From: an uncultured cyanobacterium
Lineage (GTDB): Bacteria; Cyanobacteriota; Cyanobacteriia; Cyanobacteriales; CAWCAG01
Assembly (NCBI GenBank): GCA_963793425.1
Contig: CAWCAG010000009.1
Coordinates: forward strand, 1 to 64,000
Length of the DNA: 64,000 bases
Direction of reading: 5' to 3'
Shown: in pieces, positions 2,857 to 54,000 of the stretch
Numbering within the stretch: the first letter of the stretch is position 1
How the letters are laid out: each line of letters opens with the position of its first letter
Made by a program: the position numbers and the translations under genes
Notes under the pieces: model-generated
Told to the model about the DNA's origin: nothing
Databases searched by the model: none
What the model saw: the letters and a program-made list of their open reading frames with translations, nothing else

Positions 2857-3459
2857 TTACCTATTACCTATTACTTCTTCTTTATACCTACCCACCTTCT
2901 TTGCTGCTTGGGGTAAGCAATTTTGCCGTAAACTACAACCTTTGCAGCGTTTTGTGTAAATTGCTGGGGGCATCTTGCCGCTTTGTAATAGTTTTTGTAT
3001 AGCTTGGATAGTTGCGATCGCAGTTTCTTTTAATTGCTGATTAATCTCCACAGCTTGCCGTTGATGGGAATGGGCATAATAAACATAACCCGTTGTCACC
3101 TCCTCCCCCGTCATCTCCTCCAAACACAAAGCCTGCCCGCAAACCTGCAACTCATCATTATCCCACTCCCCCCGCTTACCCCGTTTGTACTCCACAGGAT
3201 AAAGCTTACCATCACGAGATTCAATCAAATCCGATTTGCCAATTAGGCCATACTCCTCAGATTTAAGCCAAATCGCCCTCACCTGCCAATCATCCCCCCG
3301 CTTCTCACTGCCCAAAGTATGCACCCGATCATGCAAACTAGTTCCTTCAATAGTATATTGATTCTCCACAAACTCTCCCGCACAAAACATCCGCCAACAA
3401 CGGTGAGGACAGAAAGCAAACTGATTAAGCGCTGCAAGAGGTATATATTCGTCATTCAT
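2857..3459 (-). CDS. cas4: CRISPR-associated protein Cas4
   Basis: FCPHR, GKSDLIE, PVEYKRG and C-terminal CxxCSLxxxC Fe-S motif. Confidence 0.96.
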   Translation of the reverse strand: MNDEYIPLAALNQFAFCPHRCWRMFCAGEFVENQYTIEGTSLHDRVHTLGSEKRGDDWQVRAIWLKSEEYGLIGKSDLIESRDGKLYPVEYKRGKRGEWDNDELQVCGQALCLEEMTGEEVTTGYVYYAHSHQRQAVEINQQLKETAIATIQAIQKLLQSGKMPPAIYTKRCKGCSLRQNCLPQAAKKVGRYKEEVIGNR

Positions 3460-3584: not shown

Positions 3585-4409
3585 TTACTTATTACCCAAC
3601 CTCACCCCCATCCCCATTCCCATAGTAGTTTTCCTGCCAATGCCGCAGTAGAGGGCAAAGTCTGCTAAAGCATTGATTTGCTTAATTTGCAAGGGTTCTA
3701 AATCCCCAAACAGACGGTAACTCACTTCTCCCACACAACCGATAAACTTACTGCGAGAATCAGCCACAATAGCAGTGTTGATGTTGAAGAAACTAGGGAA
3801 AATAGTTTCTAGGGGCAACTCAGGAAACTCCTGCCCACTGTACTTGTTCCAACGACTTTGCAAACTGTTAAACACTGACTCTGGAGCAGGTAAGGCAGTA
3901 TCGTATTTGCCCCGACGAAAGGCTGTCGGAGTAGCGAAATTTAAGGTAATTTGTTTAGTGCGATCACACGCTTCCTCATAAAGCTGGCTGTAAGGACAAG
4001 CATTCGCCCAAGGTTGTTCCGGATGAGGAGTCCCCAACATACTAGTAATCTTAAGATCCGCCGCCCCCAAATGCCAAGGTTTTTCCGGGTTGATATGTAA
4101 CCAAAGCTGGGTTAAGCGACTAAACATAGCCTCATCCAACAAAGATACTCGCCACCAACAATGAGTACCCGGAGGAATTGCTTTAGTATGTTGAGTTTGC
4201 AAGAGGTTGTTCTCCTTGGACTTCCTAGCAATTTGCAAAGGAGAAAGGGTAAAAGCTTTACCACTCTGAGATTCATGTAAATGCTGCCCCAATTCTGCAT
4301 CTACAGAACTAACTAAGGTAAGAAACAAAGCGTGTAAATGTCTCCCAGTCAGGAATTTCGGGGAAATGGGAGAAAGGGGCAAAAGGTTAAGGACTAGGCT
4401 ATAGGGCAT
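3585..4409 (-). CDS. cas6: CRISPR endoribonuclease Cas6
   Basis: GRHLHALF, FATPTAFR and Gly-rich loop GIGRKTTMGMG. Confidence 0.96.
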   Translation of the reverse strand: MPYSLVLNLLPLSPISPKFLTGRHLHALFLTLVSSVDAELGQHLHESQSGKAFTLSPLQIARKSKENNLLQTQHTKAIPPGTHCWWRVSLLDEAMFSRLTQLWLHINPEKPWHLGAADLKITSMLGTPHPEQPWANACPYSQLYEEACDRTKQITLNFATPTAFRRGKYDTALPAPESVFNSLQSRWNKYSGQEFPELPLETIFPSFFNINTAIVADSRSKFIGCVGEVSYRLFGDLEPLQIKQINALADFALYCGIGRKTTMGMGMGVRLGNK

Positions 4410-4427: not shown

Positions 4428-5150
4428 TTAATCAGCTTGAAAACGGTACTCCATCTGGGCAGGAATTTTTAACCCTTGCAATTCTTTAGGGGCATTTCGC
4501 CAGTAATAATATTCCCCTTCCATTTGCACATTGCGAATTAAACTTACCGGAGGCATATTAACTACATCGTAGCTAATTACTTGATGAGTAAACATTACAT
4601 CCAAAGGGTTTAAGGGATGGGGAAAAGTAAAGCTACCTGTTTTCTTTTGTGGTGGTGGTAATTGTTTAACTTCTACCTTTGCTTTACTCATCCATTTTCC
4701 TAAACGTATCCAACGGGGTAGCTTTAGAGGCTTTTGAGAGATAATGAAAGTCTCAAATAAACTCTCCGGGGCAATTTCTTTCGCCCTACCAAAACTGGGA
4801 ATATTCTTTTGAGTTTTCTGCATTTCGACATGGTAGTTATTGTTAGCATACTTCCAGGTATTGAGAATAGAACTGTAGGCAATTGTATAGGCAGGAGTCA
4901 CATAAATTCTTTGCGTGTTAAGAGGGGTTAAATGTTCCTCATATTTAGGTACTTGTTCAGGACAAAAGTAACGGTAACTATCTTCTTCTACCACAGTAGT
5001 TGAGTAAGTTAAGCTGTCAACTAAACCTAAAGCATAACTAAGGGCATAGTTGTGTAAAATTGGTTCTGTTTCATAAAGTCTGCCAATTTCACGGGTGGCG
5101 AAATAGAGACTATCGTGTAACTCTAATTGCAAGCGATAGATTAGCGTCAT
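4428..5150 (-). CDS. csc1: Type I-D Cas5d/Csc1
   Basis: LYFATRE, LHNYALSYALG, WIRLGKWMSKA; position between cas7d and cas6. Confidence 0.93.
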   Translation of the reverse strand: MTLIYRLQLELHDSLYFATREIGRLYETEPILHNYALSYALGLVDSLTYSTTVVEEDSYRYFCPEQVPKYEEHLTPLNTQRIYVTPAYTIAYSSILNTWKYANNNYHVEMQKTQKNIPSFGRAKEIAPESLFETFIISQKPLKLPRWIRLGKWMSKAKVEVKQLPPPQKKTGSFTFPHPLNPLDVMFTHQVISYDVVNMPPVSLIRNVQMEGEYYYWRNAPKELQGLKIPAQMEYRFQAD

Positions 5151-5202: not shown

Positions 5203-6231
5203 TTATTTAGCTTTCACTTTAGATTTTGTTGTACTACTTTTACCTTTGCCCTTAATATGTTTTTCAGCGTAAACTTTAGCTTCAGTGTCAGCTTGTTGCA
5301 AAATTTGTACAATCCCTGTTTCTGTTTTTGTTAAAGCTTTTACTTCGTTTAACAAGGGAGTAAAGTTTTCCCCTAAGAAATCTTCATGAACAATAAATTC
5401 ATCTTTCATTAATTCTTCCATCGCACTCTTAGCCGCAGTAATAACTTCATCTTCGTTTAAAGGATCAAGAGATTCAAGTTTATTTTCTGCTTGTAATTGG
5501 TCATAAATAGCTTGAGTCCAGCGTAAGTTACTAACAATTTCCCCATCAGCAAAGATGACACCGATTAATTCATTCCTAACTCTTCCTGTACGGGTGGTTT
5601 GTGCGCCATAATGACGAGTTCTGAGGATATTATTAAACACATACAAGAAACTCGCTTCAGTGGAGTCTTTTAAAGTAACAATACTAGGGAAAAAGACTTG
5701 GGGTTTAATATGATCTTGCTGATTAATTCTGCTGGTTACTTCCCCTGGTTTTGATTTATTTTCTCCTTTAGATGTCATAGTACCATTTTCAAAAGGGGCA
5801 TTGAGGGTAAAAGTTTCGTGGGATTCGTCGAAAGCAGTAATAGAAAAGGCAGTATCAACCACAACTTTAGACTTTTCTGAACCAGAATCACCAATAGCAA
5901 AACCGTAGATAATACAGTCGGGATTGTCCATAGCAAAGCTAACATTATATTCACACTCTTCTGCGGTCATAAATTCATATTTTCGCAGCAATTCCCTACC
6001 AACTAAACGTTCTGGAGTAGATTGTTTACGTTTGAACATAGAAAGGCGACTAATTGTACTCTTTTCAGCAATACCTGCCCTAACTCTTGCTTTATTCAGT
6101 TCGCTATCAGTTTGAAACAAAGGATAGGATTCTGTAACTCTGACGGTGATAAAGTGAACATATTTACCCATTGGTTTGTAGGGTATTTCTGTGTGAAAGT
6201 TTTTAGAATTAACGGTTGTTAATAAAGCCAT
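5203..6231 (-). CDS. csc2: Type I-D Cas7d/Csc2 (likely start MALL at 6231; ORF extends to 6276)
   Basis: KRKQSTPERLVGRELLR, PDCIIYGFAIGDSGSEKSKV, YGAQTTRTG. Confidence 0.94.
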   Translation of the reverse strand: MALLTTVNSKNFHTEIPYKPMGKYVHFITVRVTESYPLFQTDSELNKARVRAGIAEKSTISRLSMFKRKQSTPERLVGRELLRKYEFMTAEECEYNVSFAMDNPDCIIYGFAIGDSGSEKSKVVVDTAFSITAFDESHETFTLNAPFENGTMTSKGENKSKPGEVTSRINQQDHIKPQVFFPSIVTLKDSTEASFLYVFNNILRTRHYGAQTTRTGRVRNELIGVIFADGEIVSNLRWTQAIYDQLQAENKLESLDPLNEDEVITAAKSAMEELMKDEFIVHEDFLGENFTPLLNEVKALTKTETGIVQILQQADTEAKVYAEKHIKGKGKSSTTKSKVKAK

Positions 6232-6327
6232 AATGAATCTCCTTGTAAATTGTAGAATGTAGGTTGGGTTGAACAACTGTGAAACCCAACATTTATCAAA
6301 TATGTAGCAGACAATTTGAAGTAATTT

Positions 6328-6786
6328 TTATTCCTCTTCTTTAACCTGATTAGTTTTTGGAAAATTCTCTTTGTCATCTTCTAAGCGATAAAGAAACTCG
6401 CAAGTATCTTTAATCAGATTTAATTGCCGCCCTGCTAACCTAGCGCGATCGCTTGCGAAAGCTTTTTCAAAAACATCCACCACAAAGTAACGGGCAAAGT
6501 CTAAAACAGCTTGCCTTTCTTCTTCCCTATGCTTGAAAATCCAACGCCCTTCAGCAGTAGAAGAGTGAACCCGATCCATCAGTTTGAATACTTCTGCTGC
6601 TACGGCATTAACTAAGGTTTCTCCTTGGAAGATAGTAGACTCTGCTTTTAAGATGGTTTCGGCAGCAATATCTATCGGTTTTAAAACGGCGTTGGATTTC
6701 GGGTTATAACGCTTATTAGCGCGGTAAAACTTACGGTAAAGTTCGGTAAGTTTTTGGGGATGATTTAAACTTGATTGTGTTTGCAA
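6328..6786 (-). CDS. cas11d: Probable internally translated small subunit Cas11d (152 aa) within cas10d
   Basis: AAGGAG Shine-Dalgarno 6 nt before an in-frame TTG (6786-6784), ahead of SSLNHPQKLTELYRKFYR. Internal Cas11d translation is established for type I-D. Confidence 0.7.
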   Translation of the reverse strand: MQTQSSLNHPQKLTELYRKFYRANKRYNPKSNAVLKPIDIAAETILKAESTIFQGETLVNAVAAEVFKLMDRVHSSTAEGRWIFKHREEERQAVLDFARYFVVDVFEKAFASDRARLAGRQLNLIKDTCEFLYRLEDDKENFPKTNQVKEEE

Positions 6787-9748
6787 TTGCCACTCCTTTG
6801 ATTCAAAATTGTAAATTGCATAAGGGTCAAAACAAGGGTAAAAATAGTAAGCATAGAGACGTATTTTAGAAATTCTCGCAGTTTCCACTTTTTGCCTCCG
6901 CACCCAACGATTTAAGTAACTAAAGATATATAAAGGACTAGTTTCTAAATCTTTAGCTAATTCGGTTAACTTGCCCCAGTTAGAGTCATAACCAGATTTG
7001 CCTTGTTTTGCATTAACATCAAGATGAATTGCATAGGCAGCAGTTAAAACATTGAGGGGGGCAGAGTAGTTTCTTAGCCCCTCTTGCCAACCTTCTAAGA
7101 TGTAATCTAAGCGGAAGCGATCGCGCTTAGTTAAAACTCGGAAAGCTTGGGGGGCGCTATCAAGAAAAACTGTTTCTTCAAATTCCGCACCATCATTAAA
7201 AGGAGGGATAGGAGATTCGGAAACTACGGTTTTGACATCTAAAATCATCGGGAAAGCAAAGGCTAACCAACTAGGCATTACCCAAGATTCAGTGTCGGTA
7301 GCATCTTTACCCGGTGGTAAGGCCATAAAGTAGAAGGTAAGGGGTTGGTCTTCTGGGTAAGAAAGTTTGAAGGTACGGTCTTTTTTATATTTAGGATCAT
7401 CTTTAGGTAAAGTTGTTTTCTGTTGTAGGTTTTCTTCGATTAAAAAGCTATCTACTCTTTGATAGTTATCCCGTGCAAAATCAGCCTCCATATGTTCGCT
7501 AATAAAGTGATTGCGGATAGTAGTATTGAAGCGAGTTTGGGCAATATCGCTATAAGCTTTTTGTAAAAACTTATTAGTTTCGGGGGTAAAGTAATAAGTG
7601 GGATAAAAGTAAAGATAACGATACTTTCCATCCTCAAAACGTTTACCTACTGCTTGGGTTTGATTCATTAAAATCTGTCGCAACATCATTTCTATCCCGG
7701 CAATACTGGAGATGTTACGTTTAGCATTTGAACCACCCAACATTTGCTTATTGGTATAAACTTGGGGGGTAAAAAGTACCGCAGATTCCATTTGTTCTTT
7801 TACGGTGTAGGGAGAATGGGAAAGCGAACAAATTAATTGTCTTCCTCGACCTGATTTTTTAGCCAGTTGATAGTTATTTAACTCTTCAAAAAATACCTCT
7901 ACCCCATCAGTATTTATCTCTTTCTCTTCTGGCAACATTACTACCCGTTGTACCCAGAGGCGTAAATCATCCCAGCCATCATTTAATTGATAAGCAGAAA
8001 GCAAAGGGTTAATAATTTCAGCAAAATGTTCAATAAGTTTCTCACAAGTTTCCCTGACATCTTCAATGCCAGGATGGTGTTGCAGATACTTTGCTGCGAG
8101 GAAATACCATTCGTAGGGTACACCGCCAGTATTACCTTTTAACTTCAGTTCCTTCAAACTTTCATTAATACGCTGAATTTCCCGAATTTGGGGTAAATAT
8201 GCTTCCAGTTGCCAAAATTTAGCCGCTTCTTGAACTAAATCAATCTCTGGCAGAGGGGGAAGTTGTTTATCTTTCTTCCTTACTTTCTCAATCTTCTTAG
8301 CCTGTTCCCCCCAAATCTTACGACTAGCTACATCCCCAAACTCAGCTATTTGATCAATGCGGATATCATCACCGAAGTTGAAGTCATAGTCAGCAGAGAG
8401 GACATCTTTTTGCTGAAACTTAACTAGATTGTCGCTACGACTCTGGGCAACGGAACTCTTACCAGGATTGAGGATGCGTAAGGTTGCCCTCAAGCCTACC
8501 TGCATCAATCCTACTGTATTAAAGAACTGTTCGTAATACTCAGCATATTTCATCCCCTTACCATCTCTACCAAACCCTGTCTGACTTGCCATTAACCTCT
8601 CAGCGCAAAGTTTTTTGATATTGGCAATGACTCTTTCTGGTAACTCTGCGGTATCGAGGGGAGGGGCTTGACGATGTGCCAAGTAGATTACCCCTGTGGG
8701 TAAGTAAAGTAGGGGTTCGTAGTAAGTGCAATCCTGGGTATTTAAACTAGTGTGTGCCTGCATTATGGCATTGTTGACAACGTTAGTTAATACTCCCCTA
8801 TTTTCAGAAATGCTGTGGTAAGTAAACTTGAGTTGCCCATCACTCAAACTATGAAGAAGACTTTGCAAAGTAGAATGCTTTGCATCCTGGGGATGTTTAA
8901 TCACCGAAGCAAGTAAATCAGCAAGGGTAGTTAAATCTGCTAGACAAGTTAAATTGCGATCGCGCAGTTTCGGTTGCAAGCCATATTCAGATAGGTTGAG
9001 GTTAGTATCGTTACGCTGTTGTGCATTATAAGCAATATAAAGTAAATCATCCCGGTAGTCATACCACTCTTCTTCTCCCTGTTGTAAATGGGTAGGAAGA
9101 ATAAATTTATCAATTCCTAACTCTGTAACAACAACATCAAAAACCTCTCGATGTTCCTCTATAGATAGTTTACGAATATCTTGGTCAAAATCTTCCCTTA
9201 CTTCCCTATATTTAGCAGGCATAAAAGGAAACAAGCGATAGTCAAATTTCTCAAAGTCATGGAGAATAAAACCCGCAATAACTAATCTTCTTTCCCTTTC
9301 TTTAACTACTCTTTTTGCCGTAGTATCTAAACTCTTGTAATCGTCTCTCAATTAAATTAGCGGGAAATAAACCATTGAGAAGATGAGTATTTAAAGATTG
9401 ATCACCCGCATTATCTCGACGAACATTTTCTCTACCTCTGCGGCTATCTAAAGTGTCAAAAAATTTCCCTCCTTTAGCGGTGACACCAATAGCAACTCTT
9501 AGTAAATTAGGTAAGACAAACTCCGCAAAATCTACCATTACCTGATCATCTGGATTTTGGGAAGTAATTGCTTGTTTTAAAAGTTTGAGGGTAAGTAACT
9601 CCTGTTGTGGAGGAGAAACGGTACGTTCTGATGTTTGAAAGTAGTCTTCATCTTCATCGGGAGTTAACCAATCATCATCAATTTCCTCTTCTAAAGGTAA
9701 TGATAACTGTTCTGTTTCTTCCGGAGATTGTTTCTTTTTCTTAGCCAT
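6328..9748 (-). pseudogene. cas10d: Cas10d/Csc3 large subunit with N-terminal HD nuclease, split by a +1 insertion near 9329-9331 (real lesion or sequencing error)
   Basis: ORF 9302..9748 has DQSLNTHLLNG; ORF 6328..9351 has ILHDFEK and the Cas10d body. Minus strand reads CAA GAG T TTA GAT ACT, one extra T. Confidence 0.92.
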
Positions 9749-9774
9749 GATTCACCAAATAAAAGGTAGTATTT

Positions 9775-9844
9775 CGTAGGGTGGGTTAGGCGGGTTAAAA
9801 ATTATCCACACATCCTATCGATTTATGTCCGCCGTAACCCACCA
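9775..9844 (+). repeat. 70-bp REP-like palindromic element, copy 1
   Basis: CGTAGGGTGGGTTAGGCGG...ATTTATGTCCGCCGTAACCCACCA; direct copy at 10347 and inverted copy at 10559. Confidence 0.85.
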
Positions 9845-9863: not shown

Positions 9864-10328
9864 TCATACTCCCCACTTTTGTAAATTGCGTTCTATTTTA
9901 TTTCGTAAAGCTTGTCGATTTACTTGTATTTGTGTTTGAGTTTGAAGATATTCCTCTTTGAATTTCTCAAAGTTACCGTCCTCCTTTTCATAAATAACTT
10001 TGCCGTCACGAGCAATAAAATGAGCGATTAAATTTGAGCAACTATTTAAGTCAACTAAGTCAATTTCATTACTATTAAGGAGAAATATTTTTCCTAAAAT
10101 TCCCGGTACTTCCCACCAACCAAAAGAAGTTTCTTTTAGAGATTCTTTACGCATCTCTTTGTCGTAGAGTACAGCAAAATCCCAATCGCTTTGTTTATGA
10201 GTATCACCTCTAGCCCGCGAACCAAAGAGGATGAGCATTTTTAGATAAGGAAGTTGATTTGTAAGTTGGTTTAACTGTTCAGAGGTTATGTGTAAACCAG
10301 ATATTTCAGTAGATTTAATCATTTTCAT
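9864..10328 (-). CDS. Minimal nucleotidyltransferase (MNT/MntA-type antitoxin); no HEPN partner adjacent
   Basis: LFGSRARGD...SDWDFAV (GSx10DxD) and IDLVDL motifs. Confidence 0.9.
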   Translation of the reverse strand: MKMIKSTEISGLHITSEQLNQLTNQLPYLKMLILFGSRARGDTHKQSDWDFAVLYDKEMRKESLKETSFGWWEVPGILGKIFLLNSNEIDLVDLNSCSNLIAHFIARDGKVIYEKEDGNFEKFKEEYLQTQTQIQVNRQALRNKIERNLQKWGV

Positions 10329-10346: not shown

Positions 10347-10416
10347 CGTAGGGTGGGTTAGGCGGATTAAAATATGTTTATCTTTCCGAGCAATTTATGT
10401 CCGCCGTAACCCACCA
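10347..10416 (+). repeat. 70-bp REP-like palindromic element, copy 2
   Basis: Same arms as 9775-9844 with a different central segment. Confidence 0.85.
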
Positions 10417-10558
10417 CATTTAACATTAGTTACACTCTCAATAAAATAAACAGTATTATGGCTAATCATTTTGATTTGATATAAAAATATGAATTTAACT
10501 ATTCCTGATCACTATGATTAAATTGTTCAAATACTTTAGTTAAACTTGCTTAATTTGA

Positions 10559-10633: not shown

Positions 10634-11134
10634 TTAATTATTTTCCCTCCAAATGTCGCGTAATTCTTTCAAAACTATCCACTGATTATCTTTTTTTACC
10701 TCAACATAATCCCAACCATTACATTGACTATTATTAATTTCGTTTGCTAAGGGGCTAGGTTTGTCAAATTCTTCTCCTTGATAAACGATGATTCCTCCAG
10801 GAGAAACCATCATACTATTGACATATTCGACTCCTTTGATTTCGGCATTCTTCCTCGTTAGTTTTACTCGAACAGGCATTCCTTGTTTAGTAAGCCCTGC
10901 ATCAAATAACTGGGTTAACCTGACATGACAATTGCTTTTTTCTTGTCTAGGAAACTGATTGTCAAGGTCTATAGACAACTGCGTTGGTGCTTTTTTCAGA
11001 TTTACTCCTCCAGGTTGCAAGCGTTTGGGAAGCCAGTTTAAAAATCCAGTACGCATGGGTTCTGGCATTTGGGCTATATCGTTATCAGTAAGATGAATAT
11101 TCATTTGTATGAAGTTTATAGCTTTGACCTCCAT
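10634..11134 (-). CDS. Protein with C-terminal RAMA/DUF4357-like domain (start may be 11104)
   Basis: LTQLFDAGL...GIIVYQGEEFDKPSPLA...CNGWDYV...LKELR matches the RAMA domain pattern. Confidence 0.7.
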   Translation of the reverse strand: MEVKAINFIQMNIHLTDNDIAQMPEPMRTGFLNWLPKRLQPGGVNLKKAPTQLSIDLDNQFPRQEKSNCHVRLTQLFDAGLTKQGMPVRVKLTRKNAEIKGVEYVNSMMVSPGGIIVYQGEEFDKPSPLANEINNSQCNGWDYVEVKKDNQWIVLKELRDIWRENN

Positions 11135-11286
11135 ATTATACCCTTTTTATTTAGACAACCTTGAGATGAAAAAATAGTGAAGATATTAAAAGGAAATAGA
11201 TTATATTCGGTATTTACAATACATAACCACTTTAAAACTGGATGAAGGGTTCTATCTCTTACTTGCCAGTGCTGTCTAACCCTAAT

Positions 11287-11316
11287 TTGACAAGGGAAAG
11301 ACATCTGTGTTAGTCT
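11287..11316 (+). promoter_or_regulatory. Sigma70-type promoter driving the mini-array
   Basis: TTGACA (11287-92), 18 nt, TAGTCT (11311-16) with extended TGn; predicted start about 11323, at degenerate repeat 1. Confidence 0.7.
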
Positions 11317-11320
11317 CATC

Positions 11321-11442
11321 ATGCTAAATATTTGTAATGCCTATTAGGTATTGAAAAATGTCCTTGTATATAGCAAATGTGATAAGAACTACTATTTCTG
11401 AACTTTTCACAAGACTTCAAAATCCCTATGAGGGATTGCAAC
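11321..11442 (+). ncRNA. Degenerate two-repeat mini-CRISPR (crRNA-like RNA) with one 48-nt spacer matching the cas3' start
   Basis: R1 11321-11357 ends TAATGCCTATTAGGTATTGAAAA (20/23 to the array repeat 3' end). R2 11406-11442 ends AATCCCTATGAGGGATTGCAAC (20/22). Spacer 11358-11405. Confidence 0.85.
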
Positions 11443-11443
11443 T

Positions 11444-13585
11444 TTAACAAACCCATATTTCCTCCCCCCTACTTTTCAAACGATAAGCCAGAATATCTAC
11501 TAACAAAGCTGACTGCCCGAAACAGATAGAATAGGGTGCTGTAGAATCATGAAGACTCGTATCATCGCAAATAGGATGAATCTGAAAGTGCATCGGTAAC
11601 TGTAAACGCATCCTCACCTCTGCAACCGGGCGAGGTAACAGATAACAAACCAAACCTTCCAACTTCAAGCGTTGATTAAGCTTGCTAATCCAGTAATTAT
11701 CTGGCTGCCAAACTTGCAAACCTAATAAAACCTGTACCTTCCAAGCATCAACAAGGGGTTTTAAATCCCCAGGATAAGTAAACTTCCAATTCAACCTCTC
11801 CTCACGATATTCGTGTAACTTGAGAAAAGCCAGACAGTAACTAAACCTCCCTTTAGCTATGGGTTCGTCCAAATCCTTAACAGTCTCTCCCAACTGACGC
11901 AGATATGCAGCCTTTGTCATGGGTTCAACTACCAAGTTACTCAAAATCCCCGGTAAACTGTATGTTTTAAAACGATCTGCTTCATTGTTTTCTGTTAAAT
12001 CATAAATTCCACATTGCAAAGGACTCGAACCGCGAAAACTAGCTGCATCCTCTAAAATAGGATTGCCTTTCTTTTTACCAGAAAGTTGCAACCATTCCTT
12101 TTCCCAAGCTTTACTGCGGCCAAAAACTCGCTTTAAATTAGCATTAAATATCTTCTCACAAGCTGCCTTAAAAGCCTGCTGACTTCCAGCATATTGTTGC
12201 CTAATTGTGGGCGCACCTAATTGCCGACACAATACCATTGATTGCACAGCACCCCAACGGGAATAGTAATGGTGAAAATCATTAATTTTGCGATAATTCT
12301 CTTTAATTTGATTATGAAAAAAGATGCGATCGCATACTCCCCCACTTTCTAAAGGTGGCGAATCCACTAAAAATAACCTCCCTACTAAAAAGTTGGGTAC
12401 TAAAGCATAGGCAGTAAACTCCTTAAACTCAATATCTCCATAACCACCATGTCTCCCCAAACGCCCTAAACGCTGAATAAAATTCCCTGCATCTGCTGCT
12501 TCAAAAATGAGGAAGTTAATTTTAAAATCAACACCAACATCAATAGTACTCGTACCAATCACTAAATCTGCACTTAGCGATCGCAACTTCTCCTTCTTCC
12601 CAGATAAGCCTGTATTCTCCCCCACAGTTAAGTTATAAGGTTGCAACAGTTTTCGTAACCAAGGGGTTAAACGTTTCACAGCAGCAATGGAGTTGAGAAT
12701 AACTGCCCCTTTGCTACCGGGGGAAGTAAGGAAACGATTAACAATCAACTCACCATTCTCTTTAATCCAAACCTCCGAAGCCTTAGACTTAGATTCTAGG
12801 GAAATAAATTTTAAGTTAATTTCCCTTGTCACCAACCGCCATCCTGGTGTTGCTGCAAAGCGATATTTATCCTCTGCAACTGGATCAATTTCTCGACAAC
12901 GAAATCCTGCATCCTGCAAACGCCCCACAAATTCTGGGCTAGGAGTAGCTGAAAGGAAAAGAAATTTCTTCTGGCGATTAGTGTAGCGAATCAACAACAT
13001 TGTATTGATCACACTAGCAACCTGGGGGGCAGCAAAAACATGGAACTCATCAAAGATAAACAAATCAAAACGCTTGTCAATCTTATTCCACAGCCTATCT
13101 GGACTATCCCCAAACATGAGATACTTACTACGATGCAGGTAATGGAAAATGTCAGGATTAGCTAGTAAAATTTCTGAATTGCTGGTGCGAGATTCTAAAG
13201 CCGCCCTCTTTCTCAATCCCTCCTTGTCAGCATAGATTTCTAAATCTTCCCCACTAAGGCGGTTAACACGAGGATTATGTTTCGGTTGAAACTTCTTGAT
13301 GTAATCATAAACTTGCTTTTCTTGATCCCTTGCTAACTCGTTTGTAGGATATAAAGCGATTCCATAAGATTCTCCTTGCAAAGTGTCCAGGTAAGCCGCT
13401 AAACTTTTCCCATCCCCTGTCATAGCTGTGTTGAAAACTACATCAATTTCGGGGTCACGAATTGCTTTTAAAGTTTCCAGTTGATGCCAAGAAAGCGTCC
13501 AACCTTTAGGTAACTTAATCCCTTCTGGTAACTCCGTTGCTGGGGCAGAATAAACTGGTTTTAAAGTAACTGTATACTCGGACAT
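11444..13585 (-). CDS. cas3: Type I-D Cas3' helicase (no HD domain)
   Basis: AMTGDGKS, DEFH, LSATP, IDVGVD and QRLGRLGRH SF2 motifs. Confidence 0.96.
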   Translation of the reverse strand: MSEYTVTLKPVYSAPATELPEGIKLPKGWTLSWHQLETLKAIRDPEIDVVFNTAMTGDGKSLAAYLDTLQGESYGIALYPTNELARDQEKQVYDYIKKFQPKHNPRVNRLSGEDLEIYADKEGLRKRAALESRTSNSEILLANPDIFHYLHRSKYLMFGDSPDRLWNKIDKRFDLFIFDEFHVFAAPQVASVINTMLLIRYTNRQKKFLFLSATPSPEFVGRLQDAGFRCREIDPVAEDKYRFAATPGWRLVTREINLKFISLESKSKASEVWIKENGELIVNRFLTSPGSKGAVILNSIAAVKRLTPWLRKLLQPYNLTVGENTGLSGKKEKLRSLSADLVIGTSTIDVGVDFKINFLIFEAADAGNFIQRLGRLGRHGGYGDIEFKEFTAYALVPNFLVGRLFLVDSPPLESGGVCDRIFFHNQIKENYRKINDFHHYYSRWGAVQSMVLCRQLGAPTIRQQYAGSQQAFKAACEKIFNANLKRVFGRSKAWEKEWLQLSGKKKGNPILEDAASFRGSSPLQCGIYDLTENNEADRFKTYSLPGILSNLVVEPMTKAAYLRQLGETVKDLDEPIAKGRFSYCLAFLKLHEYREERLNWKFTYPGDLKPLVDAWKVQVLLGLQVWQPDNYWISKLNQRLKLEGLVCYLLPRPVAEVRMRLQLPMHFQIHPICDDTSLHDSTAPYSICFGQSALLVDILAYRLKSRGEEIWVC

Positions 13586-13683
13586 AACTTGATACTTAAT
13601 TTTGTGTCCGTAACTTGTTGATATTTCCTATCATGCCACCGACAATAAAGATAATCAAGAAGTTTCCGTATAAAGTGTCCGTA
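13579..13683. promoter_or_regulatory. Divergent cas3'/WYL promoter region with repeated GT(G/T)TCCGTA motif (putative operator)
   Basis: GTGTCCGTA 13604-12, GTTTCCGTA 13662-70, GTGTCCGTA 13675-83, plus inverted CGGACATAA 13579-87. Confidence 0.55.
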
Positions 13684-13688
13684 CAAAT

Positions 13689-14567
13689 ATGAGCCGTAAA
13701 GGTCAATCTATAACTCTATCAATATCGGAACATGACAAAGCCGAACTAGAAAGCTTAGCCTTAGAATTTGACATGAAGTGGGGTGAACGTCCCAACATCT
13801 CTAAATTAGTAGAAGCGATCGCCCGTCGCAAACTCCAAATTGCCCCTAATCACAACTGGGCAGCTAACCGTATCAACGCCTTAGAGAGAGCAAGAAATGC
13901 TTTAATAGATGCAGGCATGATTGAAGAGGCGATCACGATTGCTCACTTGCTCCTTGAACGCAGCGAAATTACCATACCCTTAAGAGATAGAATTCAACAA
14001 TTTCTGGGTAATCCTCCTCCACCGTGGCGACTAGAATTAGATAAATACATCAAGCGTCAACAACCCTTCCAGCTTTTTTATCAAGATGCCACAGGCCGTC
14101 CCTGGAATTTTACAGTACGCTACGCGCAAATAGTTACCCATGAAGAAAGGCAATATTTAGACTGTTGGTGTGAAGAAACAGAAGGAAACTTAGATATAGA
14201 GCAACTCCAACACAACTGGAGTCTACGCATAGATCGTATTCCAGAAGCTGCCATTATGCCAATTAAGGGTCAATGGCAAGGAAAATTAGACAAGGTGCAA
14301 GTAGAAATACATTTTTTTGAACGGTTAGCCTTTGCTTATAAAGTTAAGGCAGAGGATGAGTTAAGTGAATGGCTGCCAGAACAACCGAGAGTAAAACGTG
14401 TATTGCGCTCAATTTCTAGTACCTATTGGTTCATCCGAGAAATATTCAAAAATTCTCCTGATGCAGCAATTATCTCTCCCCAATCAGTACGCGATCGCTT
14501 TATCAAACAGTTAACTTCTCTAAATAAAAAATACGGCTTGGAAAGTAAAGCAAAAGGTGATCAGTAG
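13689..14567 (+). CDS. WYL-domain transcriptional regulator (Sll7009-like) of the I-D locus
   Basis: N-terminal RHH-like SITLSIS...NISKLVEAIA; QYLDCWC and LRIDRI; divergent from cas3'. Confidence 0.92.
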   Translation: MSRKGQSITLSISEHDKAELESLALEFDMKWGERPNISKLVEAIARRKLQIAPNHNWAANRINALERARNALIDAGMIEEAITIAHLLLERSEITIPLRDRIQQFLGNPPPPWRLELDKYIKRQQPFQLFYQDATGRPWNFTVRYAQIVTHEERQYLDCWCEETEGNLDIEQLQHNWSLRIDRIPEAAIMPIKGQWQGKLDKVQVEIHFFERLAFAYKVKAEDELSEWLPEQPRVKRVLRSISSTYWFIREIFKNSPDAAIISPQSVRDRFIKQLTSLNKKYGLESKAKGDQ

Positions 14568-15699: not shown

Positions 15700-16149
15700 T
15701 TATTTATCATTTAACGAATCTATACCTTGCTCTTTAAGTTTTTCAAGCTGGTCTTTCATTGCTTTAACTTGTTCGGCTGGGTGTCCTTGCCAAATCGTAA
15801 CTTCTCCTACAATTTTAAATGGTTGTGTCGAACGATAAGATTTAGTAGGATTACCTGGAAATTTTTTATCTGTCAAGTCTGGATCGTCTTCAAGTTCTCC
15901 TGTTGCTTCTACTAAATAAATTCTTTCCCGTCCTTCTCCAAGTGCAAGTTCAGCTCCCCAAATAGCAGCATCCAATGTTGCTGTCAAGAAGATGTATTTT
16001 GCATTTTTCTTTCGTCCAAAATTTGAATTGAAACCAACTTTAATTAAGTCGCCAACTTTCAAGTCAGCCTTCGTTCCGTGAAAATAGGCTTGAACGAAAG
16101 GTGTTGCACCTTGTCCGTTTGATTTCTTATCCTTTTTGTTTTGTTCCAT
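15700..16149 (-). CDS. arr: NAD(+)-rifampin ADP-ribosyltransferase
   Basis: FHGTKADL..GDLI, AAIWGAELA, IYLVEATGELEDDPDLTDKKFPGNPTKSYRS. Confidence 0.93.
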   Translation of the reverse strand: MEQNKKDKKSNGQGATPFVQAYFHGTKADLKVGDLIKVGFNSNFGRKKNAKYIFLTATLDAAIWGAELALGEGRERIYLVEATGELEDDPDLTDKKFPGNPTKSYRSTQPFKIVGEVTIWQGHPAEQVKAMKDQLEKLKEQGIDSLNDK

Positions 16150-48918: not shown

Positions 48919-50936
48919 TCTGTGGGTAGAGTTAGTTCTATTGGGGGACTAAGCCCCCCAAACCCGCATCTCAGGGAAACAAGTGTTTCCCCACACCCCT
49001 TCCTAACCGCTTCGCTCTTGGTTGGTTATGTTTGGCTGGCTAATTCCTGGTTGCTTTATCGTCGGAGATAGGCCTGGTGGTAGGGTGCATTGGGATTTAG
49101 GCTCGTTCCTTCTTTTGATTAGTCTGTGGGTAGAGTTAGTTTTATTGGGGGATTGACCCCCCAAACCCGCATCTCAGGGAAACAAGTGTTTCCCCACACC
49201 CCTTCCTAACCGCTTCGCTCTTGGTTGGTTGTGTTTGGCTGGCTCATTCTCGGTTGCTTTATCGTCGGAGATAGGCCTGGTGGTAGGGTGCATTGGGATT
49301 TAGGCTCGTTCCTTCTTTTGATTAGTCTGTGAGTAGCGTTAGTTTTATTGGGGGACTAAGCCCCCCAAACCCGCCCAGCAGGGAAACAAGTGTTTCCCCA
49401 CACCCCTTCCTAACCGCTTCGCTCTTGGTTGGTTATGTTTAGTTGGCTAATTCCTGGTTGCTTTTTCGTCGGAGATAGGCCTGGTGGTAGGGTGCATTGG
49501 GATTTAGGCTCGTTCCTTCTTTTGATTAGTCTGTGGGTAGAGTTAGTTTTATTGGGGGACTGACCCCCCAAACCCGCATCTCAGGGAAACAAGTGTTTCC
49601 CCACACCCCTTCCTAACCGCTTCGCTCTTGGTTGGTTATGTTTGGCTGGCTAATTCCTGGTTGCTTTATCGTCGGAAATAGGCCTGGTGGTAGGGTGCAT
49701 TGGGATTTAGGCTCGTTCCTTCTTTTGATTAGTCTGTGAGTAGCGTTAGTTTTATTGGGGGACTAAGCCCCCCAAACCCGCCCCTCAGGGAAACAAGTGT
49801 TTCCCCACACCCCTTCCTAACCGCTTCGCTCTTGGTTGGTTATGTTTAGTTGGCTAATTCCTGGTTGCTTTTTCGTCGGAGATAGGCCTGGTGGTAGGGT
49901 GCATTGGGATTTAGGCTCGTTCCTTCTTTTGATTAGTCTGTGGGTAGAGTTAGTTTTATTGGGGGATTGACCCCCCAAACCCGCATCTCAGGGAAACAAG
50001 TGTTTCCCCACACCCCTTCCTAACCGCTTCGCTCTTGGTTGGTTATGTTTAGTTGGCTCATTCTCGGTTGCTTTATCGTCGGAGATAGGCCTGGTGGTAG
50101 GGTGCATTGGGATTTAGGCTCGTTCCTTCTTTTGATTAGTCTGTGAGTAGCGTTAGTTTTATTGGGGGATTGACCCCCCAAACCCGCATCTCAGGGAAAC
50201 AAGTGTTTCCCCACACCCCTTCCTAACCGCTTCGCTCTTGGTTGGTTATGTTTAGTTGGCTAATTCCTGGTTGCTTTATCGTCGGAAATAGGCCTGGTGG
50301 TAGGGTGCATTGGGATTTAGGCTCGTTCCTTCTTTTGATTAGTCTGTGGGTAGCGTTAGTTTTATTGGGGGATTGACCCCCCAAACCCGCATCTCAGGGA
50401 AACAAGTGTTTCCCCACACCCCTTCCTAACCGCTTCGCTCTTGGTTGGTTATGTTTAGTTGGCTCATTCCTGGTTGCTTTATCGTCGGAAATGGGCCTGG
50501 TGGTAGGGTGCATTGGGATTTAGGCTCGTTCCTTCTTTTGATTAGTCTGTGGGTAGAGTTAGTTTTATTGGGGGATTGACCCCCCAAACCCGCATCTCAG
50601 GGAAACAAGTGTTTCCCCACACCCCTTCCTAACCGCTTCGCTCTTGGTTGGTTGTGTTTGGCTGGCTCATTCTCGGTTGCTTTATCGTCGGAAATGGGAC
50701 TGGTGGTAGGGTGCATTGGGATTTAGGCTCGTTCCTTCTTTTGATTAGTCTGTGAGTAGCGTTAGTTTTATTGGGGGACTAACCCCCCAAACCCGCATCT
50801 CAGGGAAACAAGTGTTTCCCCACACCCCTTCCTAACCGCTTCGCTCTTGGTTGGTTGTGTTTGGCTGGCTCATTCTCGGTTGCTCTGTCGTCGGAGATAG
50901 GCCTGGTGGTAGGGCGCATTGGGATTTAGGCTCGTT
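48919..50936. repeat. Non-coding tandem array of 10 x 203-204 bp structured units
   Basis: Units start at 48919, 49123, 49326, 49530, 49733, 49937, 50140, 50343, 50546 and 50749 (last slightly truncated); no ORF of 60 aa or more. Confidence 0.96.
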
Positions 50937-51022: not shown

Positions 51023-54000
51023 CTACTTCCTCATCTCTTCCTGGAGATAAGCAAGATTATTCCGAATAGTTACTGTGTTGGGGTGGTTGCTGCCTAAAAC
51101 TTGTTCGCATAACTCCAAAGCTTGTTGATATAGAGGTTCTGCTTCTGTATACTTTCCTTGTGATTTGTAGAGTCCTGCCAGGTTGTTGAGACTCGATGCT
51201 ACATCAGGATGTTCTTCTCCTAAAAGGCGTTTTCTTAGCTCCAAAGCTTGTTTGATATAAAGGTTCTGCTTCTGTATACCTTCCTTGGGATTCGTAGAGT
51301 GATGCCAGGTTGTTGAGACTCGATGCTACATCAGGATGTTCTTCTCCTAAAAGGCGTTTTCTTAGCTCCAAAGCTTGTTTGTATAAAGGTTCTGCCTCTG
51401 TATACCTTCCTTGGGATTTGTAGAGTAATGCCAGGTTGTTGAGACTGGTTGCAATAGAAGGATGTTCTTCTCCTAAAAGGCGTTTTCTTAGCTCCAAAGC
51501 TTGTTGATATAAAGGTTCTGCTTCTGTATACCTTCCTTGGGATTCGTAGAGTGCTGCCAGGTTGTTGAGACTGGATGCTACATCAGGATGTTCTTCTCCT
51601 AAAAGGCGTTTTCTTAACTCCAAAGCTTGTTGATATAAAGGTTCTGCCTCTGTATACCTTCCTTGGGATTTGTAGAGTCCTGCCAGGTTGTTGAGACTGG
51701 TTGCTACATCAGGATGTTCTTCTCCTAAAAGGCGTTTTCATAACTCCAAAGCTTGTTGATATAAAGGTTCTGCTTCTGTATACCTTCCTTGGGATTTGTA
51801 GAGTCCTGCCAGGTTGTTGAGACTGGTTGCTACATCAGGATGTTCTTCTCCTAAAAGGCGTTTTCTTAACTCCAAAGCTTGTTGATATAAAGGTTCTGCT
51901 TCTGTATACCTTCCTTGGGAATAGTAGAGTCATGCCAGGTTGTTGAGACTGGTTGCTACATCAGGATGTTCTTCTCCTAAAAGGCGTTTTCTTAACTCCA
52001 AAGCTTGTTGATATAAAGGTTCTGCCTCTGTATACCTTCCTTGGGATTCGTAGAGTGATGCCAGGTTATTGAGACTGGATGCTACATCAGGATGTTCTTC
52101 TCCTAAAAGGCGTTTTCATAACTCCAAAGCTTGTTGATATAGAGGTTCTGCCTCTGTATACCTTCCTTGGGATTCGTAGAGTTCTGCCAGGTTGTTGAGA
52201 CTCGATGCTACATGAGGATGTTCTTCTCCTAAGCGAGTTTCTACTTCTACCCAACACTGGTTTAAATAAGGTTCTGCTAATTTGTATAACCCCTGTCCTT
52301 TATAAAACCAAGCTAAACCAAGGAAAGACCAAATCAAGTCTTCATCATCGGCTACAACATCAAGATGCTTTGACGGTACTTCTTTGAGGTGAGGAATAGC
52401 TGCTTTTACCCTTTGAATATCTTTTAGAGTAGGTGTTTGAGGAATCGTCTTAGCAATAGCCACCATCGCCTCAGCAAAAGCCGTTGCAAACGCCTCTTTC
52501 TGCACCGAGGCTGCTAACTTTTCTTGGCAAAATACCCGAATCAAAGCATGAACTTTGTAACCGTTTTCTTTCTCATCAAACTGAATTAAATGCCGTTGAT
52601 AAAGTTGCCTTTTCCCCTGATTCAAACTCCCTTTACTCCAACTAAGATGACTTTCCGCCGCTTCCTTCACCAACTCCCAAGGTAACAAAGCCGGGGCAAA
52701 CAGCCCCATAAACATAGCCAAATCCTTCGCTTCTGTGTCCAGCTTTGCCCAACTCAACTCAAAAGCTGCCCTAACCCCTCTTTCTGCCGTACCATTAATG
52801 CTGCGATCTACTGCCTCGCAACCCAAACCCTCCTCTTGCAGCAATTCCCCCATCTCCTGCAAGCTCAAGCTGGGATCTTCCCTTAAATACCAACCCACCA
52901 ACTCAATACCCAAAGGTAAATAACCCAACCAAGCTAACAACTCCCTCGCCGTAGCAGCTTCTTGTGTAACTCGCTGTTTCCCCAACAGCTTAATCAATAA
53001 CTCCTCTGCCTTCTCCAGGGACAACACATTTAAAGGCATCTCCGTAAAACTGGGGCTGAGGTTACGCACTCTTGTAGTTAAAAGGAGAGAAAACCTCTTA
53101 TTTTGGGGTAAAACTTCCTGTAACTTCGTCTCCTTCCCCACATCATCCACCACTAGCAAAACCTTTCCCTGTTCGGGTTGCCAATGCTGCCAACACCACC
53201 TCACCTGCTGCAAAATATCGAGGGGTTGCCCCTGAGAGTTTTTTTGCGGAATCTCCAAACCCAGATTAAGCTGAATAAACTCTACCACCGCCGTAGCCAA
53301 GTCATTCACCCGCACATCAAACCAACAAACTCCCCCACCATAAACATCCTGATATCTCTTTACATATTGCGTCGCCAACTCCGTCTTGCCCACACCACCC
53401 ATTCCTGCCACCGCAGAAATAGCTATACCTTCTCCTTGGCATAACTTTGTGTGGAGTGTCTCCAACTCCTTCTCCCGTCCCACAAAATACTTTGAACCAG
53501 AATATTTAAGAGATTGTAATGGCTTTGAGTCCTGTTCCCCAGGCGAGTTCAGTCAATAGTTATTATTGTTAACAGTAAAGCTACCAGGGCCAGAATTATT
53601 ATACTGCCCACCTTCAATCTTTTGCTGATAAACCCCAATACTTTCTGCTAACTTAGGGCGATTTTCCTTTGCCGCTTGTGCCTGTAATCTTTTGTTTAAA
53701 ACACCCAACTGCTTTTTAAAAACCTGATTTTCTTGCGCTGCCTCTTTTACCCGTTGCCCTAAAATCTCTAACTCTTGGCGCAACTCCCCATCAGACTCAA
53801 CCTCCTTTGCCACAGCCTCCAAAACCGCCACCCCAATATCTTCAGGATCTTCTACTGCTGCTTCCAACGCCTTAAACTTTTCCGGAGATTTACCAACCAA
53901 CAAACTCTTAACCTTGCTTCCCTGTTGCCAAGCTGCCTCAACAACCTTTTCTCCTGCTTTCTCCAGAGTTTTATTACCAAGCAAAACTCCCAAGGCAATT

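Follow-up and report, generated by a model that had tools for sequence, protein, structure and literature searches.

This study was concerned with a short element at positions 11287-11442 of a 64,000-nucleotide (nt) stretch of DNA from an uncultured cyanobacterium (contig CAWCAG010000009.1, positions 1 to 64,000, here called the window). The element lies beside cas3' in a type I-D CRISPR locus in which two non-cas genes, one MntA-like and one RAMA-like, sit between cas10d and cas3'; these are referred to as cargo genes. Judged by its sequence, the element is a real mini-array, a small CRISPR-like RNA gene beside cas3', and with a probability of about 0.65 it is a CRISPR RNA (crRNA)-like RNA gene of the class already described for I-D loci between cas3' and cas10d. 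Read by its pairing, its guide most likely points to the promoter region of the neighbouring cargo gene, rather than to the start of cas3'. The original prediction, which was made from the window alone, saw the element correctly and had the general concept right, but named the wrong target.

The mini-array is on the + strand between cas3' and cas10d, convergent with cas3', while the main array is read on the - strand. It consists of two degenerate repeats, R1 (11321-11357, +) and R2 (11406-11442, +), which enclose a spacer-like guide of 48 nt (11358-11405, +). R1 is degenerate in its 5' half, forms the hairpin AATGCCT-ATT-AGGTATT and has ATTGAAAA (11350-11357) as its 8-nt handle. R2 is a full-length repeat of another I-D repeat family, carries the handle ATTGCAAC and abuts the cas3' stop codon. 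Over the last 22 nt of the array repeat, R1 shows 3 differences, two of which turn a stem C-G pair into G-U, and R2 shows 2, one in the loop and one in the handle. The original prediction had reported two degenerate repeats opposed to the main array with hairpin and handle kept, the C-G to G-U change in R1, and the altered loop and single handle base in R2, and all of these were confirmed where it had placed them. Both hairpins are present in the minimum free energy and centroid folds. Outside the arrays, the genome contains only three places with at most 4 mismatches to the last 22 nt of the repeat: R1, R2 and C5:1780000, the last being a solitary repeat-like site with 4 mismatches. R1 and R2 are 85 nt apart beside cas3', and such a pairing is far above chance expectation. 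The Rfam model CRISPR-DR5 matched R2 at 32.1 bits (E 0.12), below the gathering threshold, and the same search did not detect R1.

The two repeats resemble repeats found elsewhere. The 5' half of R2 is identical to the array repeat of genome G288 at 18/21 positions, with resemblance over the full length, and the R2 loop (ATG) is the loop of the array repeat on contig C7. The G-U stem variant of R1 recurs in solitary repeats beside RAMA-like genes at loci L061, L064 and L065. The variant is no local compensatory change, since it stands in those three loci too. A metagenome pattern scan for the R1 stem variant returned 56 stretches, mostly chance matches in coding DNA; three of them (L072, L121 and L110) are solitary repeats of the RAMA type, one (L070) is an array carrying that stem, and the window's guide was absent from all 56. 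The corresponding scan for the handle plus the guide start returned 0 stretches. A blastn search of the spacer and intergenic region (11135-11445) against 401 genomes of the order gave no homologue of that region among the 150 of 936 matches listed, all but one of which fell on the repeat-like units, the remainder falling on an A-rich 30-mer. No exact 9-mer common to the spacer and the window was found within the locus.

Upstream of R1 is a putative promoter (11287-11316, +) with TTGACA at 11287-11292, 18 nt, and TGT-TAGTCT with the -10 box at 11311-11316. The promoter claimed in the original prediction, TTGACA-18-TAGTCT with an extended TG, is therefore present, with a -10 box that agrees with TATAAT at no more than 3/6 positions, and it was not called by a promoter scan that requires 4/6 in the -35 box. 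The relatives described below have a -35-like box at a comparable place.

The proposed cognate target, site C, is on the - strand at 11202-11227, with the protospacer-adjacent motif (PAM) GTT at 11227-11225 and the protospacer at 11224-11202. A GTN/GTT PAM for type I-D is supported by passages in PMC9123187 and PMC10212523. Pairing was scored over paired positions, leaving out the flipped guide positions 6, 12, 18 and 24, and the seed was taken as positions 1-5, 7 and 8. The guide reads ATGTC, C, TTGTA, T, ATAGC, A, AATGT and the DNA of site C reads ATGTA, TTGTA, A, ATACC, G, AATAT, so that 17/20 paired positions match provided that the DNA is without a base opposite flipped guide position 6. 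The four segments then match at 4/5, 5/5, 4/5 and 4/5, and the flipped positions 12, 18 and 24 are all mismatched. Under the gapped model site C is the only GTN site in the genome to reach 17, and the next best three sites reach 15. In the 186 nt that separate the RAMA-like gene from R1, 0/3000 shuffled guides reached 16 under any of four models, and in a simpler gapped test over 16 nt, 7/2000 shuffles reached the 12 of site C. A genome scan for better GTN-flanked matches had been put forward as a check in the original prediction, and its outcome went against the proposed cas3' target, since site C in the adjacent intergenic region is much better.

Site C is 134 nt upstream of the spacer start. 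Protospacer positions 20-23 overlap a perfect TATAAT, a possible -10 box of the cargo, at 11200-11205 on the - strand, which is the cargo strand; this box, at 11205-11200 in the direction of reading, was not called by the promoter scan with its 4/6 requirement for a -35 box. Cascade at site C would cover a plausible core promoter of the cargo, the TATAAT box being putative.

Other candidate sites were considered. Site B (11297-11307, -) has a perfect seed (11304-11297; positions 1-5, 7, 8) inside the mini-array promoter, with CAG in place of the PAM; there is no pairing beyond position 8, and a seed match in the region was obtained in 219/5000 shuffles. Given its PAM and where pairing ends, it could be only a weak second site. 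Elsewhere in the genome there are 35 GTN sites with a perfect seed, the best of which scores 12/15 (C3:92745). These were rejected as targets; three of the four that were inspected are inside open reading frames, the fourth being C5:739869. As a separate observation, guide positions 4-16 (window 11361-11373), when reverse-complemented, are identical to 13 nt within the -10 region of the promoter of the solitary repeats in L024/L056; this 13-mer has matches of 11-12/13 in L054, L057 and L059, is without a GTN PAM, and no explanation for it was found.

The comparison with related loci provides the target rule. Relative loci came from a related-locus search with Cas3' (6 loci) and from 61 genomes, 24 of which had a Cas3' match; a search for RAMA-like homologues covered 401 genomes and gave 14 with a match, including the window. 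Of these loci, 22 relatives were analysed. L009 and L024 were dropped as duplicates of L004 and L056, and L012, L013 and L021 because each has just one repeat, placed directly at the end of cas3'. L016 was dropped because its repeat-like matches are on the other side of cas3', with no repeat within 450 nt beyond the stop of cas3'. Loci without a unit in the repeat search were also dropped, including L062, L063 and L066, whose more divergent repeats it missed. Many of the collected loci, which come from many genera, have one or two repeat-like units directly against the stop codon of cas3', on the strand opposite to it. In 21/22 relatives the best GTN-flanked site precedes the spacer start by 62-221 nt and so falls in the interval that the mini-array and the cargo gene enclose; site C lies within this range. 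Those best sites score 11-15 of 15 paired positions, and the seed is 7/7 in 17/22 relatives. Mismatches in the 21 relatives fall at position 6 in 13/21, position 12 in 18/21 and position 18 in 14/21, and at each of positions 1-5 in 0-1 of 21. This periodicity of mismatches at 6, 12 and 18 is the pattern expected for Cascade pairing. L022 has C at position 8 of both guide and target, and T stands there in the related GAATAAG guides and in their targets.

A family of solitary repeat units stands beside RAMA-like genes at the cas3' end in L054-L059, L061, L064 and L065, and likewise, with divergent repeats, in L062, L063 and L066. Its members share the conserved guide ACTGTCGCCTTCTGA... and usually have a tandem pair of targets flanked by GTT. 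The 5' leader of the family's RNA, GGAGAAAGGG-like, is complementary to a CCCTTTCTCC-like stretch that follows the guide, and L061 and L065 show matching changes in the two. The complementary stretches may form an end-to-end stem that replaces the second repeat.

The missing base opposite position 6 of site C has counterparts in these relatives. For this comparison, 34 GTN sites in 21 relatives were used, each with at least 4/5 in segment 1 and at least 3/5 in segment 2. Segment 3 is kept at 4/5 or better without a gap at 24/34 sites. At 6 of the remaining 10 sites, segment 3 matches at 5/5 after a shift of one base at position 12, with one base more in L015, L022, L054, L055 and L061 and one base fewer in L065. 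These events span three guide families, and a control with non-cognate segments gave 0/862. Natural I-D crRNA-like targets might thus tolerate one DNA base more or fewer opposite flipped positions (6, 12), with pairing resuming in register; the suggestion comes from aligned sequences, and we regard it as tentative, with the odds leaning somewhat against it. A term search of PMC10120712 for gaps or bulges found no mention in the text it reached, and no paper on this point was recognised from titles and the beginnings of abstracts. It is the sole lead in this analysis that was not found described, which is not proof that it is unpublished.

Several points weigh against the assignment of the element to the described class with site C as its target. 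First, site C combines a one-base gap at guide position 6 with a mismatch at position 5, and PMC10212523 gives as a general type I rule that the first 8-10 nt must all pair, position 6 excepted. Secondly, the gap model was picked after the data had been seen, with 4 models used in the test of site C and 7 in the comparison of relatives. Third, the relatives form approximately five guide families and are hence not independent. In addition, the window has a single site C and relatives usually have two tandem sites, and the guide region is 48 nt long, compared with 34-40 nt for spacers of the array. The promoter scan of 11000-11600 returned 0 sites, so that no cargo promoter was called. No homologue of the spacer by which to judge covariation at the window pair came out of the blastn search or the metagenome scan. 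Lastly, cas10d has an inserted base and cas1 is split, and Cascade may be defective unless these are assembly errors.

If the element works as proposed, transcription would start near 11323 on the + strand. Cas6 would cut at the base of the R1 and R2 hairpins to leave an RNA with the handle ATTGAAAA (from 11350) and the guide from 11358. I-D Cascade carrying this RNA would bind the GTT-flanked site at 11227-11202 (-), inside the module's own intergenic region, and the partial pairing (4/5, 5/5, 4/5, 4/5) would permit binding without interference. The bound Cascade would then repress the promoter of the RAMA-like cargo gene, perhaps with an effect on the MntA-like gene and cas10d by read-through, and perhaps the divergent mini-array promoter too. 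Whether such a circuit is still working in this strain is an even question. Its present activity is uncertain because the seeds of sites A (the cas3' start) and C are imperfect and because cas10d and cas1 are frameshifted in the assembly.

The same features are what speaks for the most serious alternative, in which the mini-array and site C are a once-working pair that has decayed within a decaying I-D locus and has no present function. The seed of site C is imperfect, there is one site where relatives mostly have two, the -10 box of the mini-array is 3/6, cas10d has its one-base insertion relative to the congener G001, cas1 is in two frames, and the MntA-like gene is without a HepT partner. 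However, the segments after the gap stay paired (5, 4 and 4 of 5) while all flipped positions are mismatched, as would be expected if selection for pairing by Cascade were still acting. Both hairpins are intact, and the stem of R1 is still paired. The indels at flipped positions with resumed pairing in six other loci argue for tolerance over decay, and the frameshifts may be assembly errors. On this evidence a relic is rather unlikely, and the reading of the element as a crRNA-like RNA gene directed at the cargo promoter region is preferred to it.

According to the original prediction, the RNA would lead Cascade to the start of cas3' behind a GTT (13588-13570, -) and so give a CreR-like negative feedback on the cas operon. 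The sequence match on which it was founded exists. Site A (13570-13588, -) consists of GTT (13588-13586) and the start of cas3', matches the guide at 13/16 positions with mismatches at 7, 8 and 14, has the first six positions perfect, and begins in the register exactly after the handle, all as claimed. It is the window's best ungapped GTN site, 2228 nt from the guide. Its place is also improbable. Of the 44 sites with 13/16 in the genome, only 4 are GTN-flanked, and one of these falls on the first codon of the first cas gene; a rough estimate of the odds of this placement, allowing for the initial ATG of the guide, is 1 in 300 to 1 in 5000. Autorepression of cas genes by degenerate mini-CRISPRs is, moreover, established for types I-B, I-E and V-A according to the abstract of 10.1101/2023.03.10.532045.

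The pairing at site A is ordinary when it is set against the genome. Its mismatches at positions 7 and 8 are two consecutive seed positions, its score is 11/15 paired positions (seed 5/7) and 14/20, and 98 and 34 GTN sites genome-wide, respectively, reach these scores. In a null test, 35/366 non-cognate pairs of spacer and locus reached 11/15 within 5 kilobases, and the cas3' start is never the best GTN site in the 22 relatives (0/22). The congener G001, whose Cas3' is 92% identical, has the same GTT followed by ATGTCCGAGTATACA (the first 15 bases) without a mini-array, and ATGTCC, encoding MSD/MSE, is the common cas3' start in the relatives; for both reasons coding accounts for the sequence of site A. 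Pairing of the guide at site A would be with the template strand, about 45 nt or more downstream of a conserved extended -10 box, and from that position binding would act as a roadblock rather than by occlusion of the promoter. Conventional control of the cas3' promoter is on offer as well, from a WYL-domain regulator gene and repeated TACGGACA-like motifs. Thus, cas3' as the target, with feedback on the cas operon, is very unlikely and is not supported, although the place of site A remains a mild coincidence that we do not fully dismiss. The broader concept in the original prediction, a crRNA-like RNA that guides I-D Cascade to a partial GTN-flanked site for repression, is upheld by the anatomy, the relatives and the literature; the part of it that fell is cas3' as the target. 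An origin of the guide as a decayed, self-derived cas3' spacer was also considered and rejected, as the similarity ends after position 16 (7/19 beyond).

The regions upstream of cas3' were compared separately. A conserved AACAAGTTACGGACAC-like motif is present in these regions of L002, L005, L006, L008, L009, L010, L013, L019 and L022 and in the window at 13590-13690, and the same regions, from many genera, have a conserved extended -10 box (TGnCAATAT-like). In the window, a 13-nt tandem AAGTGTCCGTACA at 13660-13687 adjoins the divergent WYL regulator gene. The motif, the box and the tandem are candidate operator sites.

The solitary repeats could lastly be read as a Racr-like RNA anti-CRISPR carried by the cargo module to titrate Cas6 or Cas7, in favour of which the module appears inserted relative to G001, its repeats are of foreign type (the R1 stem variant, and R2 from another repeat family) and Racrs are solitary repeat mimics in viral genomes in the relevant passages of PMC10651486, but this is scarcely credible given a position beside cas3' that is conserved across many genera, guide-target pairs with a PAM and periodic mismatches that a decoy would not need, and no phage genes nearby.

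The preferred reading, a crRNA-like RNA gene with a target upstream of cargo, has close precedents. The portion of PMC10120712 consulted describes I-D mini-arrays that lie in a long intergenic region between cas3 and cas10d and are transcribed in the direction opposite to cas3. For two Cas3 clades it places cargo genes (toxin-antitoxin, regulators, others) between the mini-array and cas10d. It also reports putative targets in cargo promoter regions, variable gene content and related species with empty loci, and creA-like elements are mentioned for I-D in part of 10.1101/2023.03.10.532045. The original prediction could not tell whether an I-D instance had been described, and these two sources answer that such instances have been. 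The I-D mini-arrays of Shmakov et al. and the present element have in common two repeat-like units in the cas3-cas10d intergenic region opposite to cas3, toxin-antitoxin-like and other cargo between mini-array and cas10d, a PAM-flanked, partial, seed-proximal target upstream of the cargo, and variable gene content with an empty locus in a close relative (here G001). Two differences were found: the upstream repeat is the more degenerate overall in the window and is the better one in what that paper says of it, and the window target needs a one-base gap at flipped position 6. Thus, the window has the repeat-like units, the position between cas3' and cas10d, the opposite orientation, the PAM-flanked partial match and the cargo genes of this class, the cargo promoter being predicted.

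CreR resembles the element in being a degenerate mini-CRISPR between cas genes, with a guide that in part matches a PAM-flanked promoter site. As far as the part of 10.1101/2023.03.10.532045 seen goes, CreR represses the promoter of effector cas genes, and its experiments concern I-B, I-E and V-A, with none on I-D; the supported target here is upstream of a non-cas cargo gene. Downstream of site C come the cargo genes and then, also on the - strand, cas10d, which would be affected only by read-through. CreTA, reportedly described by Li et al. in 2021 and cited in PMC10120712 and 10.1101/2024.01.05.574328, is said to be a CRISPR-repressed toxin-antitoxin in which creT is a small RNA. Both CreTA and the present element combine, in a self-contained manner, a crRNA-like guide with a target at the adjacent gene's promoter and depend on the host Cascade, so that loss or inhibition of Cascade would derepress the gene. 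They differ in that creT is a small RNA and the cargo here is protein-coding, the RAMA-like and MntA-like proteins being known here from sequence alone. Racrs share with this element solitary repeat mimics on mobile DNA, as far as the source describes them. The element was not placed among them, because its repeats flank a guide with a PAM-flanked cognate site, it is in a chromosomal cas locus, and its position is conserved across genera.

The first cargo gene (10634-11134, -) encodes the RAMA-like protein, and its true start is likely the second ATG, at 11104. The protein matches Pfam RAMA at E 1.6e-06, below the cut-off, and PADLOC PDC-S14 at E 1.2e-10, and no solved relative was found by sequence. 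Homologues are present in 13/400 other genomes, and in 12/13 the gene is within a few hundred bases of the cas3' end, L060 being the exception. All 12 of these loci carry a repeat unit when read in sequence, and 9 also do so in the repeat search. The second cargo gene (9864-10328, -) encodes an MntA-like nucleotidyltransferase (NCBIfam NF047752, E 2.6e-25; Pfam Polbeta), and no HepT partner was found beside it. Direct repeats of 74 nt stand on both sides of this gene (9770-9843 and 10348-10421), and G001 has one copy of them. The 74-nt segment has inverted arms, GGGTGGGTTAGGCGG / CCGCCGTAACCCACC-like, and looks like a small mobile or palindromic element.

G001 also bears on the origin of the module. 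It is without the MntA-like gene, the RAMA-like gene and the mini-array, and its cas10d, which is intact, is separated from cas3' by about 360 nt. The block at approximately 10646-11460, with the RAMA-like gene, site C, the mini-array and the last codons of cas3', is extra relative to G001, and the segment upstream of cas10d that is common to G001 is still present at 9770-9843. The block therefore has the inserted look of a small mobile cargo module made up of the RAMA-like gene, an intergenic control region and the mini-array. The extra block, the R1 variant at other RAMA loci and the likeness of R2 to the G288 repeat together indicate that the mini-array travels with its cargo and target as one Cascade-dependent module.

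The window starts with a CRISPR array, after which comes a type I-D gene set that is complete, on the - strand. The array (7-1213, -) has 17 repeats of 37 nt and spacers of 34-40 nt, and is truncated by the contig start. An array with an identical repeat at 428413-430186 of contig C1 is probably the window array continued across a contig break, and further arrays on contigs C5 (1518577-1521420) and C7 (238836-242643) have the hairpin and handle of the window and C1 arrays. The array in the window is followed on the same strand by cas2 (1509-1781), cas1 (two overlapping frames, 1833-2246 and 2177-2836), cas4 (2857-3459), cas6 (3585-4409), csc1/cas5 (4428-5150), csc2/cas7 (5203-6276), cas10d (6328-9748, two frames) and, beyond the cargo genes, cas3', the type I-D helicase (11444-13585; TIGR03158, E 2.1e-109). 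The WYL-domain regulator gene (13689-14567, +; PADLOC WYL, E 1.3e-10) is divergent from cas3'. The two cas1 frames, of 219 and 137 amino acids (aa), match positions 1-187 and 195-283 of Pfam Cas1, and the split looks like a frameshift. The two cas10d frames are one of 148 aa (9302-9748, the N-terminal part) and one of 1007 aa (6328-9351). Compared with the intact 1160-aa gene of G001, cas10d has a one-base insertion near 9331, outside any long homopolymer, which cuts off the first ~130 codons from the remainder; the extra base would be either a real frameshift or an assembly error. Elsewhere in the window, a reading frame at 15700-16149 (-) strongly matches a family of rifampin ADP-ribosyltransferases (PF12120, E 9.2e-48). 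There are also two tandem repeats, one at 48919-50936 with a 203-nt unit (9.9 copies, 95% identity) and one at 51110-52232 with a 126-nt unit (8.9 copies, 94% identity).

The element would be one more CRISPR-derived regulatory RNA, and it extends the class described in 2023 to a family of cyanobacterial I-D loci with RAMA-like cargo, although the supplementary files of PMC10120712 may already list this locus. The case indicates that short partial matches at conspicuous places, such as a start codon, first need a null that is genome-wide and aware of pairing. The circuit reads as Cascade-dependent cargo, with an addiction-like or anti-anti-CRISPR logic, and not as feedback on the cas genes. If I-D Cascade does bind targets with a changed length at flipped positions, this would be an unrecognised rule of target recognition. 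The length change could then be one way to bind without cleavage, and it would bear on the prediction of off-targets for I-D editing tools. Confirmed binding of this kind would refine the rules by which Cascade recognises its targets.

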